DNA of 64,000 nt from an uncultured Candidatus Saccharibacteria bacterium (GTDB taxonomy: Bacteria; Patescibacteriota; WWE3; UBA101185; UBA10185). Each line of letters starts with the position of its first letter. The stretch's first letter is position 1. This document shows positions 54,745 through 60,921 of the stretch, in pieces. The position numbers and the translations under genes were made by a program. Where the stretch lies: the NCBI GenBank assembly GCA_964396025.1, contig CAYNBT010000001.1, positions 109,271 through 173,270 on the forward strand, read 5' to 3'. The notes beneath the pieces were generated by a model. It was not told where the DNA came from and did no database searches. It was given only the letters and a program-made list of their open reading frames with translations.

Positions 54745-55899
54745 CTATTTATAAACTACTTGGTCGACATTTCTATCGGGCACTATAGATATCCAAAACT
54801 TACCTCTATTAAACTCGACTTCTGCACCATCTTGTGTATAAAAAACAGTTCTTGAGTCTCGATCAGGCTTGGTCCAAGTTACAGGTATTACTCCCCCATC
54901 AATAAAAACTAAGCCTTCACCAGTACCGATAAGTTGATAGTCTAATCTTCCCTTTTCATCATCTGCAATATCCTCTTCTGTGGCAAACTGAACGATTAGA
55001 TTTTTCACACTCAATTGCTTTTTTGATTCCTGATCTATGTGAGGAATTCTTTGATCCTTTTCGTCGTAACCTATAAACCTAAGATAAGAATTGCTCGCAG
55101 AATCGAATTTCCACCCTGCAGTGTAATCTCCAGGATACCAAAAGTCCACAGTTATATCCGAAATCAGTTGCTCTGGCTTCACAGGCTTATCGTCTTTAAA
55201 TTTGTATGGTACTATGTCTTTTTTTCCACTCCAACCGAGTTTATCTCCCAGAGCTCGCAAATCTTTTCCGTTTGAATAAGCAGTATGCTCCGTAGCAATT
55301 CCCGCGTCTAACCTAGCTTGATCACGCCAAAAATCCGCTCCACCACGACCAAGACTTCTTACAGGCCATGATTCTATGGCTTCTAAAGCTTGTGGAGACC
55401 ACCCAATATGCATGAGCATAGCATCGCCCATTTCTTTAACTAACACTAGATAATATTCGCGAGTACTTCTAATAGGCCCTATTTTTTCTGGGGTATTCGA
55501 TAGGAAAAAAGCCAGATACCTTGTGATACCGCCTTCAGCTACGATTTCATAAACCAAATCAGCATCAATTAAGCCGGATTGCGGGCGGGCATCAACATGA
55601 TTGTTAATCATTACACCTAAAGGTCTTATGTTGGACCATTCTTGCGCAATTTCTTTTGACACTAAAATACCGGTGAGAGGAGCTGCCACCATATTTTGCG
55701 TTTTGCTACCACTACCAAAAGGCTTTCCCAAAGGATTCAACAAACTGCCAGGAGAAGAATTTGAAAGTAAGTACAGGTAAAAAACTATTCCCGCTACTAA
55801 CAACCCTATAAATACCATAACAAACGTCTTGGGAGATTTCCCGTTAGATGTTGCGGGTGAAAAACCGGTTATGAATTCTGGTTTATTTGTTATTTCCAT
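54745..55899 (-). CDS. DUF3048 (YerB-like) domain protein, membrane-anchored
   Basis: N-terminal TM; …RPLGVMINNHVDARPQSGLIDADLVYEIVAEGGITRYLAFF… matches the DUF3048 core. Confidence 0.55.
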   Translation of the reverse strand: MEITNKPEFITGFSPATSNGKSPKTFVMVFIGLLVAGIVFYLYLLSNSSPGSLLNPLGKPFGSGSKTQNMVAAPLTGILVSKEIAQEWSNIRPLGVMINNHVDARPQSGLIDADLVYEIVAEGGITRYLAFFLSNTPEKIGPIRSTREYYLVLVKEMGDAMLMHIGWSPQALEAIESWPVRSLGRGGADFWRDQARLDAGIATEHTAYSNGKDLRALGDKLGWSGKKDIVPYKFKDDKPVKPEQLISDITVDFWYPGDYTAGWKFDSASNSYLRFIGYDEKDQRIPHIDQESKKQLSVKNLIVQFATEEDIADDEKGRLDYQLIGTGEGLVFIDGGVIPVTWTKPDRDSRTVFYTQDGAEVEFNRGKFWISIVPDRNVDQVVYK

Positions 55900-55900
55900 A

Positions 55901-56368
55901 TTAAGACTTCAAAGCAACGTTTAGAACGTCACGTTCTTCTTTTGATAACTCATAATTAAGTTCTTTTCCCTCTTTAATAGGCTTGGCATATATTCTGGTA
56001 CCGGAACGTCCGTGCAGACTTGAAAGAATCACACCCGAACCCTTTTTATCCATTAACGCCAAGGAAAACGATTGATCGCCTCCTGCATCATCAAATGGGT
56101 TAAATCTTTTCAAAACGATTTTATGAACAAACCTTTGAGATTCCTCGTGTAAGCCGCTAGATAACCTCAGCACATGCTCGTACTTTGCATTCATTTGGCC
56201 AAGCGTATTCAAGACCTTTTGAGCTACCACATCCAAATCATCACCAGACTCAATTTTTAGCCCCCTTAACTTTTTCATTAAGGCTATGTACTTTAGAGTC
56301 AGAACCAAAAGCCACCCAAAAAATACAAAAACTATTATTACCAAAAATATTCCTGTCCCATTGCTCAT
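55901..56368 (-). CDS. DUF4446-like small membrane-anchored protein
   Basis: N-terminal TM; …KRFNPFDDAGGDQSFSLALMDKKGSGVILSSLHGRSGTRIYAKPI… pattern recalled from DUF4446. Confidence 0.4.
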   Translation of the reverse strand: MSNGTGIFLVIIVFVFFGWLLVLTLKYIALMKKLRGLKIESGDDLDVVAQKVLNTLGQMNAKYEHVLRLSSGLHEESQRFVHKIVLKRFNPFDDAGGDQSFSLALMDKKGSGVILSSLHGRSGTRIYAKPIKEGKELNYELSKEERDVLNVALKS

Positions 56369-56624: not shown

Positions 56625-57632
56625 CTAGGAAAGCTTCTTTAGAGCAGCCTCAATAAACTCATCCAAGTTACCATCTAACACAGATTCAGGATTAGTGCTT
56701 TCTACTCCGGTTCGAACATCCTTAACAAGCTTATATGGATGCAATACATAGTTCCGAATCTGCGCACCCCAGCTTGGAGCCTTGTAAACACCCTTCAGTT
56801 TTAACTTTTCTTGCTCCAAACGCTCAAATTCAATTTGGTAGAGCTTTGATTTTAGTATTTTCAGGGCCTTTTCCTTGTTTTTTCCTTGATAGCGTTCTTC
56901 TTGACACTCAACGACGATACCAGATGGTATGTGTTTTATACGAACAGCTGTCGAAACCTTGTTAACATTCTGCCCCCCATGTCCACCTGCTCTAAAGGCC
57001 TCAAATTCTATGTCATCATCTTTTACTTCAATATCGATATCATCTTCTATTTCCGGGATCGCCTCTACCATGGCAAAAGACGTCTGACGTAAATTGTCTG
57101 AATTAAAAGGAGAAAGTCTCACCAGCCTGTGAGTGCCAATTTCATTTTTTAGGTAACCATAAGCATAAGGGCCTATAATTTCTAACGATATTGATTTTAA
57201 ACCAGCCTCATCACCTTGATGTTTAGAAAGCTCATAGACCTTCCATCCACGATTTTCAGCATAGCGTGTGTACATTCGGGACAAAATTTCTGTCCAATCC
57301 ATAGCTTCTGTACCACCTTGGCCAGCATGAATTGAAAAGATAACGTTATTTTTGTCATGAGGGCCAGAAAGAAACAGCTTAAGCTCAATCTTGCTTAGCT
57401 CTCGTGTAAGCTCTTCTTCATTACCTTCTTCTAAAAGAAGATTTAGAAAATTGTAATCCTCAATTTCTTTTTGTAACGTTGAAAGCTCTTGTGAAAGTTT
57501 CTGTCCTTTTTCCCAATCTTGCCATACAGAATCGTCTTGCATCAACTGATTGATTTCTTCTACGCGTGCCGCTTTAGCAGGAATGTTTAGTTTTATGTTG
57601 ATATCAGCTATCTTTTGCCTTAACTCATCCAT
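56625..57632 (-). CDS. prfB: Peptide chain release factor 2 (no programmed +1 frameshift)
   Basis: SPF motif (RLSPFNSD), GGQ ([14 protein letters not shown]). Start set at [16 protein letters not shown] by alignment to RF2 N-termini; the listed ORF start is a TTG in an N-terminal extension. Confidence 0.85.
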
Positions 57633-57669
57633 AAAACTGAGTATAGCACTACGCAAGCTGACTCCAAAA

Positions 57670-60300
57670 TCAAAGCTTAGGTTCTTCAAAGACTTCCAAG
57701 CCAAGACTTACCTCATCACCCAAAGTGAGCTCGTTTGCCAGGAGTTTGACCGCTAAGTAGGTTTCAACATATTCTTCTATGACACGTGCTAGAGGTCTGG
57801 CGCCAAGTTCAGGATTAAAACCACGACGAGTTAGCTCATCGATCAGTTCAGGCTTAAATGAAACCTTGATACCTTTTTCTTCCGCCATTTTTCTTACTCT
57901 GTTTAAAACTAGATCAGCAATTTTCCTCACTGCTGGTACATCCAAAGGTTTAAATACAATTACACCATTGAAACGGTTTAGAAACTCGGGGGCATATTTG
58001 GAGTGCACATCTTTCATGGCAGCGTCCTTCATATCTTCAAAGGATCCACCATTTGCAGATATTTCCTGAATGGCTCTTGTGCCTACATTACTCGTGGCAA
58101 TGATAATGGTGTTCGTGAAATCAATTGTAAGACCGGAAGAATCGGTTAGACGGCCATCATCTAGAACCTGCAAAAAGGTTAGTAAAATGTTGGAATATGC
58201 CTTTTCTATCTCATCTAATAAAATGAGCGCGAACGGGCGAGTGCGCACAGCCTCCGTTAATATTCCTTTAGTTTTTCCATCTGGAGAACCTACAAGCCTG
58301 TTTATGCTGTCTTGCTGTTGATATTCAGACATATCTAGACGAACCATGTTCTTGGAATCACCAAAGTAAGCCTTGGCCAATGCCTTAGCGGTCTGAGTCT
58401 TTCCCACACCAGTCGTACCTACGAACAAAAAGCTCGCGATGGGCTTACCTTCATCCCTTATTCCAACTCTTGCACGCTTTAACGCAGCTCCGATTTGAAT
58501 TATTGCGGGATCTTGACCAATCACGTCTTGACGCATGAGTTCTTCAATTTTAAGCAGTTTTGCAGTTTCTTCTTGGGTAAGAGATGACACTGGAACATGG
58601 GTAATTTGAGATATCTCCATTGCCACATCCTCTGCGGTCACCTCACGTTTCTTCTTGGATACTGAAGCACAGGCGCGATTTAGCACGTCTATTGCTTTGT
58701 CAGGAAATACGCGCTCATGAATAAGACGTTTTGAAAGCTCTATCGTTCTAACCAAGGCAGGGTAAGAAATAACAATGTTATAGGAGTGTTCAAAATCCCT
58801 TGCAACAATTTTCAGAATATCGAGGGTTTCCTCTACACTAGACTCCGGTATTTCTACCACTGAAAAAAGTCGAGAAAATGAACCAACGGGTTCAATATAC
58901 TTGCGATAGTTTTGTGCGCTTGTAGCAGCAATAAACTGATTTTTCCCTGATGACAGGTAAGGTTCAAATACTGTAAAAGGACTTGCGGTCTCTGAATTAC
59001 CGCCATTATCTGCAGCAATAAGATTATGTATCTCGTCAATAAACAATATTATGTCCTTCGAACTCTCTACATCTTTCATTAATTTCTGAATACGCTCGGC
59101 TACTTCTCCAGAAGTCCTTGCACCTGCAATCAGACTTCCAGTATCCAAACTCACAATTCTCTTAAATTTTAATGAGTCGTATTTTGTACCATGCACAACT
59201 TGGTGGGCCAAACATTTCACTAGAGAAGATTTACCACTACCAGGAGACCCTGTAATGATAACGTTCTCAGTTGTGGAACCGCTTAGAATATCTGCTATCT
59301 GTTCCAACGGGCCTGTCCTCGCCAAAAGACGTTTGAATTTTCCATATTTGGCCATTTCCGTAAAGTCTACTGAAAAGGAATCTAGATACTTAGTAACTCT
59401 TCCTGTCATTCCTCTGTTTGTACCACCCATAATAGGTGGCTCGTAATCTTCTTGCCAAAAATGTACTTTTGCCAAATGCTCTCTATCTTCAAGGGTCCAT
59501 TGAACAGCAGCTTCGAAGTGAGAAAGTTTTGAACCTAATGCAGCTAATAACACATCATATTTTGGCGTGTTTTTTAGTACTGCTAAAAGCAAATGCTCCA
59601 TTTCAATGTAGCGGCATTTTGTCTGAATTGCATATTCATAGGATGTTGCTAAGAGGTCTTCAAACTTGAATTTGACGTTTTGGGAAACAAACCGCTCGAC
59701 CAGTTGTTCTGCTGATGTTTCGGTGCGTTTAAGCAAATCCTGCATATCTCTTTCGCATAACATTTGCAGCAAATGTTTAGCATCAAAGTCTGAAAACGTG
59801 TTGAGATAAACTTTTGCATGGGGACGCATAGCTAATGAGGCGCTATCCCGCTTTACAGAAGCAACTCTTTGCAAAGGCACGTTTGACCTTAACAGTTCCC
59901 AAAAGACAAAATGTAAGATAAAAACAGGCACAAACCAAAATTCCAAGTAGTAGATTAGAACTAGAGGCATAAAATACCACAATACAGGCAAAGTAAAAGT
60001 CACAAAAGCTAAAAACAACAAAATAGGTATGCTCAGGAGTAACTTTACAGTACGATACATAAGACCCATTGCTCTGCCAACAATCGTGTAATCACCAAAG
60101 AGTGGCGTGAATAAAAGTCTAATTGTGAGGAAGAATGAAAGCTCGTTGTTTACTAAGGACAAAAAATTTCTTGATATGTGGAAAAGACGTTTAGGAAATT
60201 TTACTAACCACCAAATGATAAATTCAGTTGCCCGGTTGTACATTATATTGCTCATCATATAAATTAAAGCATTCATTAGTTGTTCATTGCAAGGATACAT
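57670..60300 (-). CDS. Clp/Hsp100-family double-AAA+ ATPase (ClpC/ClpA-like) with N-terminal 4-TM membrane anchor
   Basis: Residues about 20-165 hydrophobic (4 TM). Clp_N-like repeat …[14 protein letters not shown]…. AAA-1 Walker [10 protein letters not shown]; AAA-2 Walker [14 protein letters not shown]; sensor/C-terminal D2-small domain; short middle region, so not a long ClpB M-domain. Confidence 0.8.
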
Positions 60301-60303
60301 ATC

Positions 60304-60331
60304 TTTAGTGCGGCCACATTTGTGGCCGCAC
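60304..60331. promoter_or_regulatory. Perfect inverted repeat AGTGCGGCCAC-n4-GTGGCCGCACT immediately 5' of the clp-like start codon
   Basis: 11-bp perfect arms with a 4-nt spacer. 7 nt after the upstream gene stop and 6 nt before the ATG at 60300. No U-tract follows, so it is not a canonical terminator. Confidence 0.4.
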
Positions 60332-60339
60332 TGGCAATG

Positions 60340-60921
60340 TTAGAAACTCTGAGCATCAAATTCAAAATCAAACATAGCTGATTTACCTTGCTTTGTGCTG
60401 GAAACTGAGTCAGTAGAAAACTTAAGTAACACTCCTTTTACTTCCCCAGAGGTAAGAGTGCCCAAATCAAACCCTTCTGTTTTCCACTTCACAATTGATT
60501 TTTTCCCTAATGATGTACTTAACTCTTCTGTCTCAGCCAAACCGTTGTTGTTGGCATCTGCCCATACATAGGGCTCCACGAATATAAGTTGTCTTAACTC
60601 ATCAGGATCGTTTGCCGTGGCATATTCAGCACGCGAAGTTAGTATAAGATTCGAAGTAGAATTATTGTAAATCTTGACCAAATAGGAATCTCCCCAATCC
60701 GAAGTCACATTGTTAAACTCAGGTCCTGTCAGCTCCGACACTAGGTTTTCGGTGTTTACACCCCCACTAAGATTGCTTAGAAGCTTTATTTCTGCACTAG
60801 CAACAGTGAACTTGGAACCCAGCACCTTGGAATTCCCAAGAAACACAGCATAACCTACACCAGCACCAATTAACAAGGAACTCAAAAGCAAAACAGGCAT
60901 CATAAAATATCGCTTATTCAT
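60340..60921 (-). CDS. Secreted/anchored protein with TasA/camelysin-like (SipW-cognate-type) N-terminus, hypothetical
   Basis: Signal/anchor MMPVLLLSSLLIGAGVGYAVF followed by …FTVASAEIKL…; Asn/Ser/Thr-rich beta-type body. Weak resemblance only. Confidence 0.3.
   Translation of the reverse strand: MNKRYFMMPVLLLSSLLIGAGVGYAVFLGNSKVLGSKFTVASAEIKLLSNLSGGVNTENLVSELTGPEFNNVTSDWGDSYLVKIYNNSTSNLILTSRAEYATANDPDELRQLIFVEPYVWADANNNGLAETEELSTSLGKKSIVKWKTEGFDLGTLTSGEVKGVLLKFSTDSVSSTKQGKSAMFDFEFDAQSF

Follow-up and report, generated by a model that had tools for sequence, protein, structure and literature searches.

The window considered here, that is, the whole stretch of 64,000 nucleotides of contig CAYNBT010000001.1, carries on its minus strand a Clp-like open reading frame (ORF) located between prfB and the gene of a 193-residue protein (p193). 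The reading frame is intact, with neither stop codons nor frame changes, and residue numbers are given from its first ATG. The true start is probably at M15/M16 (60258/60255) or M20 (60243) rather than at 60300, since homologues begin there, 7–11 residues ahead of an F-x-x-W-W motif, and since the database protein that is 100% identical to the window protein has 857 residues. The features of the ORF are collected in table 1.

Table 1. Features of the Clp-like ORF, in window coordinates.
Feature	Position	Strand	Residues and remarks
Whole ORF	57670-60300	-	876 residues from the first ATG; single ORF
Conserved amphipathic Lys/Arg-rich N-terminal module	60052-60243	-	20-83
Motif F-T-P-L-F-G-D-Y-T-x-x-G-R-x-x-G-x-x-x-R closing the N-terminal module	60052-60111	-	64-83
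Hydrophobic block	59890-60051	-	84-137; inferred two-pass hairpin
Clp N-domain fold	59473-59850	-	~151-276
Family-specific linker FWQEDYExPxMGGxG[KR]GMTGRVTPxLDSxSxDFT, directly before D1	59359-59463	-	280-314
D1 AAA+ module and lid	58546-59355	-	316-585
D1 Walker A, GSPGSGKS	59227-59250	-	
D1 Walker B, ILFIDE		-	417-423
D1 pore-loop position, AGARTSG	59104-59124	-	Thr in place of the ClpB Tyr
D2 AAA+ module (AAA_2)	57967-58446	-	619-778; all catalytic residues present
D2 pore loop (10 residues)	58261-58290	-	no Tyr; shorter by four residues than the GYVG loop of ClpB/ClpC
ClpB_D2-small C-terminal domain	57706-57942	-	787-865

Pfam matches to AAA (residues 347–485, E = 6.6e-26), AAA_lid_9 (488–582, E = 2.7e-16), AAA_2 (619–778, E = 3.2e-50) and ClpB_D2-small (787–865, E = 2.3e-19) confirm the two AAA+ modules of Clp/Hsp100 type that an earlier note, made from the letters of this DNA, had recognized, and the Clp_N-like repeat that it had placed ahead of them is borne out as a true Clp N-domain, both in its double repeat and in its fold. 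Foldseek retrieves ClpC, ClpB and ClpA structures with E-values down to 7.5e-52, the overall fold being nearest to ClpC, ClpC1, ClpB and ClpA. The first Walker A, described in the same note as non-canonical, is in fact regular: GSPGSGKS obeys GxxxxGK[ST] and departs only from the GEPGVGKT typical of Hsp100 proteins. Across the alignment of 142 full-length homologues, to which all family-wide counts given below refer, its consensus is GEPGSGKT with the Lys present in 142/142, and little or no variation is seen in the Walker A and B motifs of both rings, the D2 sensor-1, the D2 Arg (in PEFLNRF) and sensor-2 (in GARPL). In the ClpB-type D1 ‘RR’ pair, Leu takes the place of the second Arg in 123 of the 142, as it does in the window protein.

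Alongside these intact ATPase sites, the hallmarks of DnaK coupling, of threading and of docking on ClpP are missing, as was found by HMMER alignments to solved structures of ClpA, ClpB and ClpC. The M-domain is absent: residues ~408–506 of ClpB and ~409–465 of ClpC have no counterpart, the AAA_lid_9 match is contiguous, and ClpA aligns to the window protein in one stretch. The D1 pore loop AGAKYRGEFEERL stands opposite a 13-residue segment of the window protein containing RTSGE, and the D2 pore loop GAPPGYVGYEEGGQLTEAV opposite a segment reading G----KTKG. Neither substitution is a peculiarity of the window protein. The D1 pore position is mostly occupied by Thr (68 sequences), Ser (45), Asn (14) or Gly (5), with an aromatic residue anywhere in the D1 loop in only 3/142, and a Tyr near the position of the D2 GYVG is found in only 2/142; the remaining aromatics of the D2 loop directly precede LTE, a place at which ClpB has one too. 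Although devoid of aromatic paddles, the pore loops themselves are conserved (PDGxxKG). Finally, the region of ClpC KYVGFNVQDETQNHKD is aligned with SANG-------GSFED, a seven-residue deletion of the VGF loop for ClpP docking that leaves a ClpB-like length, and the family consensus at this place is xxRGGTFEEM. The search for an IGF/L loop that the earlier note had advised thus ends in a deletion shared by the family. All scores against the NCBIfam Clp equivalogs are far under their cut-offs: 544.5 bits versus 1232.1 for ClpB (TIGR03346), 486.5 versus 993.15 for ClpA (TIGR02639) and 460 versus 884.95 for ClpV. A ClpV/TssH identity is further contradicted by the neighbours, which are ribosomal proteins, radC and prfB. 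As judged from sequence, the window protein fails the defining tests of ClpA, ClpB, ClpC and ClpV, and it is Clp/Hsp100 by fold and by domain order.

Public annotations describe an ordinary ClpC/ClpA-type unfoldase that feeds ClpP. The database name ‘ATP-dependent Clp protease ATP-binding subunit ClpC/ClpA’, the proximity of the fold to ClpC, ClpC1, ClpB and ClpA and the lack of an M-domain, as in ClpA, all speak for this function. It is nevertheless very improbable, given the deleted [IVL]G[FL] loop, the absent pore-loop tyrosines and the distance from the ClpA equivalog. Furthermore, neither the window nor ~0.74 Mb of related loci gives a clpP match in tblastn with an approximate E. coli ClpP query. 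No protease domain, M41 included, is present among the best 25 of the 59 Pfam families matched with E ≤ 0.1, and the AAA+ and D2-small matches extend to residue 865 of 876. The partnership with a protease suggested in the earlier note is therefore not supported by the motifs, and no linked protease gene occurs in the loci examined.

The same note had proposed an unfoldase or disaggregase activity, which would make the protein a membrane-tethered ClpB/Hsp104-type disaggregase threading aggregated or misfolded membrane proteins. ClpB is indeed the best sequence match in both the PDB and NCBIfam, D2 resembles that of ClpB in having no ClpP loop, and a weak DnaJ-like CxxCxGxG zinc ribbon in two Parcubacteria relatives (see below) hints at unfolded-protein clients. 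On the other hand, the absence of the M-domain implies the absence of DnaK coupling, and the ClpB equivalog score is less than half of its cut-off. In ClpB the pore tyrosines Y251 and Y653 are needed for disaggregation, and both are missing throughout the family, so that the motifs lend no support to such an activity and a function of this type appears quite unlikely.

The protein is further distinguished from soluble Hsp100 proteins by its N-terminus. The four transmembrane (TM) helices announced in the earlier note are reduced to about two segments, TM-grade values being confined to residues 79–137 in Kyte–Doolittle and Hessa-type scans. With these two scales and family-averaged hydropathy, a strong segment is found at ~84–107 and a second hydrophobic one at ~110–135. 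Residues 20–83 are below TM grade (best 19-residue ΔG, +6.1 in the Hessa-type scan) and amphipathic, with a hydrophobic moment up to 1.6. The family hydropathy profile has no charge at positions 87–116, a semi-polar spot at 117–122 and again a hydrophobic stretch at 123–137; W108 and P112 are conserved between the two hydrophobic stretches, and Lys/Arg-rich flanks border the block 84–137 on both sides. We infer that the block forms a two-pass TM hairpin turning at W108...P112 with both ends on the cytoplasmic side, because both flanks are positively charged and because the ATPase must be cytoplasmic. Structures in the PDB that match the membrane module are generic helical hairpins only.

An N-terminus of this kind could be the artefact of a wrong start, of a frameshift or of a chimeric assembly joining the gene of a small membrane protein to clp, and the occurrence of the N-terminal module as a separate gene in Parcubacteria might be taken in favour of such an origin. 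The chances of an artefact are next to negligible, since every one of the 142 full-length homologues has the in-frame fusion, as do ~48 of 50 loci from independent assemblies, a complete genome among them, and since a stop codon or frameshift looked for between residues 137 and 150 is absent from the window ORF. The possibility, also raised in the earlier note, that the N-terminus belongs to a different gene holds for Parcubacteria, where it is encoded separately, and fails for the lineage of the window, where it is part of the same frame. The best 120 close homologues are 46–100% identical to the window protein with alignments covering 84–99% of the query (mostly 96–99%), N-terminus included, and the full-length homologues that keep the same architecture number more than 140, WWE3 and other Patescibacteria being the source of most, which supports the earlier description of a membrane-tethered Clp/Hsp100 protein of unusual layout. 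The genome scan with the N-terminal alignment yielded the 50 loci mentioned above (complete genome, CP006914.1), and the titles of nearly all the records read WWE3, ‘Patescibacteria group’ or, as deposited, ‘Candidatus Saccharibacteria’.

Conservation along the protein is uneven. On average, the homologues are most similar to the window protein in D2 (64% identity), the most conserved region of the family, followed by the linker before D1 (55%), D1 (48%), the membrane module (35%) and the N-domain (26%). Within the N-terminal module, P66 and R83 are invariant (142/142), G75 is found in 140/142, and D70 and R76 are nearly invariant. In the linker the same is seen for W282 (138/142), G293 (141/142), T303 (142/142) and L306 (141/142), and a linker-like motif, NRAWTxRPTPxLD, is present in the Clp-like proteins of Parcubacteria. 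A second and distant fused clade (L042, L045–L048 and L049) has only 25–30% N-terminal identity and is likewise without pore tyrosines. In L042 and L045–L048 the Walker A reads GPPGSGKT and the D2 loop PPGA(G/E)xxEPGQ, and in L049 the D2 loop is almost wholly deleted (RLLSGALIEGIR).

The relation between the membrane module and the ATPase became apparent from the distribution of the module itself. An exhaustive HMMER search with residues 1–322 returned 95 cluster representatives, whereas an earlier word-indexed search with the N-terminal 322 residues had given two matches only. About 25 of the 95 are proteins of 90–150 residues that match only residues ~13–120. They share the pattern F/W-Y...D..LA....LR..F.PLYGDYS..GR..G..FR..R followed by a hydrophobic helix and W...P, the positions invariant in the fused proteins being kept, and ten of them scanned against Pfam and NCBIfam disclosed no family for the N-terminal module. 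In Parcubacteria the module is encoded as a separate gene of 108–140 codons, which in 9/9 evaluable loci lies immediately upstream of, and often overlaps, a gene for a Clp-like double-AAA+ protein of 796–947 residues. Split loci are few in this sample, and a tenth one is truncated by the end of its contig; their records include Parcubacteria, Colwellbacteria and Paceibacterota, and neighbours other than the pair vary. This pattern of fusion in some lineages and of adjacent genes in others speaks strongly, on genomic grounds, for joint action of the module and the Clp-like ATPase. The family of the Candidate Phyla Radiation (CPR) defined here on these sequence features, namely by a PLxGDY membrane module (invariant P...G-D-Y...G-R...G...R, then a hydrophobic helix) that is fused to, or encoded directly upstream of, a double-AAA+ Clp-like ATPase without pore tyrosines, M-domain and ClpP loop, includes the window protein, which has both the module and the ATPase.

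Six of the Clp-like proteins from split loci were examined closely. Each has at least one TM-grade N-terminal segment of its own and an intact D2, and all are without pore tyrosines and ClpP loop. Their D1 is degenerate: the DE of Walker B is changed to PD, PH or GH, the Lys of Walker A is Arg in three of the six, and the D1 Arg is lost in most. The Clp-like partners of two loci (L054, 5379–8222, and L055, 5368–8196) open with two CxxCxGxG motifs ahead of the TM helices, a zinc ribbon for which the Pfam matches to the DnaJ motif are weak (E = 0.06 and 8e-4, respectively). DNA-repair genes flank some of the pairs, namely polA and an endonuclease-IV-like gene (judged by eye) in L051, PolX in L053 and L060, and UDG with an Ogt-like gene in L056, and NUDIX genes are also found among the flanks of split loci. 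This appears to be a matter of gene order within lineages rather than of function, because L054, L055, L057 and L059 have no repair genes beside the pair. A DNA-translocase function, to which the Lys/Ser/Thr-rich pore loops of the window protein and some of these neighbours might point, was considered and rejected: the D2 loops of the relatives keep Asp/Glu, and the neighbours are inconsistent.

In the fused lineage the surroundings of the gene are conserved. The order rpsI-HTH-radC-p193-Clp-prfB (HTH, helix-turn-helix) is kept in ~40 loci, and the adjacency of Clp and prfB holds in the distant fused clade too, so that the setting is a housekeeping one and not that of an island. This bears on a further explanation, by which the protein would serve in anti-phage defence as the AAA+ component of a system whose other part is a small membrane effector. 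Matches to the D2 region are given by two PADLOC models, DolB and PDC-M37B, and the relatives have a two-gene layout of ATPase and small TM protein; these matches do not go beyond the generic AAA_2 domain and PADLOC recognizes nothing in the small protein, while defence islands are not conserved in the way that the ribosomal-protein and prfB context is across ~40 loci. A role in defence is hardly credible on these grounds, and the candidate was rejected with only the generic AAA_2 (D2) matches to its credit.

Several details of the immediate neighbourhood may be added. A scan for promoters and terminators around the Clp-like gene gave nothing above chance. Between the stop codon of p193 (60340) and the first ATG of the Clp-like ORF, a perfect palindrome with an 11-bp stem, GTGCGGCCACA-AA-TGTGGCCGCAC, is found at 60308–60331; as RNA it would reach −25.4 kcal/mol (z = −6.4 versus shuffled sequences), and it was left unflagged by the terminator scan because no U-tract follows. 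It occupies the place of a signal-peptidase gene in related WWE3 genomes. The p193 gene itself (60340–60921, minus strand; 193 residues) lies upstream of the Clp-like gene and is the neighbour kept in ~40 WWE3 loci. In the related locus L001 (8928–9988) the p193 homologue has a signal peptide of the SipW-dependent type (TIGR04088, 19.4 bits versus a cut-off of 19), and the gene that comes after it encodes a signal peptidase I of archaeal/SipW type (TIGR02228, 76 bits), of which tblastn finds no match in the window. On the other side, prfB (56625–57704, minus strand; PCRF and RF-1 domains) is one uninterrupted ORF, so that the programmed +1 frameshift by which many bacteria express RF2 is not in evidence. 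With the TTG listed as its start, it would overlap the end of the Clp-like ORF by 35 nucleotides; translation probably begins at the ATG at ~57632 (MDELRQKI...). Downstream of prfB, at 54745–56368 (minus strand), are two conserved genes, for a DUF4446 protein (155 residues, with an N-terminal TM segment) and for a protein with the N- and C-terminal domains of DUF3048 (384 residues); the latter, with the HTH-like gene that follows, holds the same position in several WWE3 loci. Farther away, at ~900–31700, a long run of minus-strand genes may be a cell-surface glycosylation cluster: judged by eye, the translations resemble glycosyltransferases, methyltransferases and a sugar epimerase/dehydratase, together with five or more large membrane proteins of the multi-pass kind (500–700 residues).

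Taken with the conserved architecture, the missing hallmarks suggest a lineage-specific, membrane-anchored Clp/Hsp100 ATPase of the CPR, fused in WWE3 and its relatives, that would work independently of ClpP, be driven mainly by D2 and remodel or extract a membrane client through a tyrosine-less pore, a function for which we consider the chances to be even. According to this proposal, a cytoplasmic amphipathic module and a hydrophobic hairpin anchor would be followed by the Clp N-domain, the linker, D1, D2 and D2-small, and a hexamer would turn its N-domain/D1 (entry) side towards the cytoplasmic face of the bilayer. The hexamer would operate without ClpP, as there is no docking loop, and without DnaK coupling, as there is no M-domain. 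D2 would be the main motor, and D1 would serve mostly in nucleotide-dependent assembly while drifting towards a structural role; in Parcubacteria it is already degenerate. ATP would be spent on remodelling or extracting a membrane-associated client, or a complex with the protein’s own membrane module, through a non-canonical pore, the action presumably being unlike classical threading because the aromatic paddles are gone while the loops stay conserved.

Some observations weigh against this proposal. The membrane topology is derived from hydropathy scales and the positive-inside rule, and AlphaFold has residues 73–138 as a single continuous helix rather than a hairpin. No conserved neighbour indicates a client, and the presence of prfB and of the SipW-type secreted protein may reflect inherited gene order. 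Moreover, ‘extraction’ may be the wrong verb, as pore loops deprived of their aromatics would hardly thread polypeptides efficiently. A different idea is that of a non-threading, ATP-driven gate or transport motor, in which the membrane helices of the hexamer, at least 12, would make up with the module a membrane assembly switched by the ATPase rings, in the way of Bcs1 or of a translocon-associated motor. The strong conservation of the membrane module with its invariant polar residues D70, R76 and R83, its fusion or adjacency to the ATPase in every locus examined, the conservation of pore loops that carry no aromatic paddles and the conserved linker at the D1 entrance are all consistent with such a motor. 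Yet the module resembles only generic helical hairpins in the PDB, and such a motor must be considered unlikely, if worth keeping in mind. Equally speculative, and rather doubtful, is its formulation as a two-part membrane machine present across the CPR, made up of the small conserved membrane protein and a tyrosine-less double ring of Hsp100 type and fused in WWE3, in which the ATPase would drive the membrane module for gating or cargo movement instead of threading a substrate in the classical way. If true, AAA+ motors coupled to membranes would gain a functional class that is new.

Comparison with known systems helps to place the proposed membrane-anchored ATPase. With ClpA, ClpC and ClpB it has in common the Clp N-domain, D1 with AAA_lid_9, the AAA_2-type D2, ClpB_D2-small and the intact Walker A and B motifs of both rings; it is like ClpA in having no M-domain and like ClpB in having no ClpP loop. 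It differs from all three in ~120 extra N-terminal residues that form a conserved membrane module, in the family-specific linker before D1, in the absence of pore Tyr residues in D1 and D2, in a D2 loop that is four residues shorter and in the Leu that replaces the second D1 Arg. In FtsH, too, a two-helix N-terminal anchor holds the entry face of the hexamer at the cytoplasmic membrane surface, a likeness that follows from the predicted topology. FtsH, however, has one AAA module, an M41 protease, a periplasmic domain between the TM helices and an aromatic pore loop, whereas the window protein would have two rings and practically nothing outside the membrane between its helices, and it has neither a protease domain nor an aromatic residue in the pore. 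Msp1/ATAD1, an extractase, and Bcs1, a translocase of folded proteins, are non-proteolytic ATPases held at the membrane by an N-terminal anchor, and Bcs1 is a precedent of a membrane AAA+ protein that acts without classical threading; these are single-ring eukaryotic/mitochondrial proteins outside the Hsp100 clade, and Msp1 retains aromatic pore loops. Two Hsp100 relatives that act at membranes are also distinct. Skd3 (human CLPB) differs in its cleaved hydrophobic stretch, ankyrin repeats and single ring with GYVG. Plasmodium HSP101 is soluble, keeps the pore tyrosines and docks on EXP2 by the D2 face, whereas the anchor of the window protein is on the N-domain/D1 side. Torsins are membrane-associated AAA+ proteins of the Clp/Hsp100-related clade that have no aromatic pore-loop residues and need a membrane partner, but they are single-ring, eukaryotic and lumenal, have no Arg finger of their own and show no close sequence relationship.

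Literature searches, including the WWE3 genome paper (PMC3812714), gave no account of a membrane-anchored CPR Clp protein, of the loss of the pore loops’ tyrosines or of the paired small gene. A preprint on a CPR pilus proved to be unrelated to the membrane-anchored Clp. In databases the members of the family are named ‘ClpC’, ‘ClpA’ or ‘AAA family ATPase’. The actual role probably differs from what the annotation as ‘ClpC’ implies, and the label is misleading.

Hsp100 proteins are the textbook case of threading by pore-loop tyrosines. The soluble part of the window protein could be expressed in a heterologous host, which makes the role of a tyrosine-less Hsp100 directly testable. A large clade in which the ATPase sites are intact, while the tyrosines, the ClpP loop and the M-domain have been lost and a membrane module has been joined, suggests that the Hsp100 scaffold has been adapted to another, membrane-linked job. 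The gene is probably important for CPR organisms, as it is kept in a housekeeping context in their tiny genomes.

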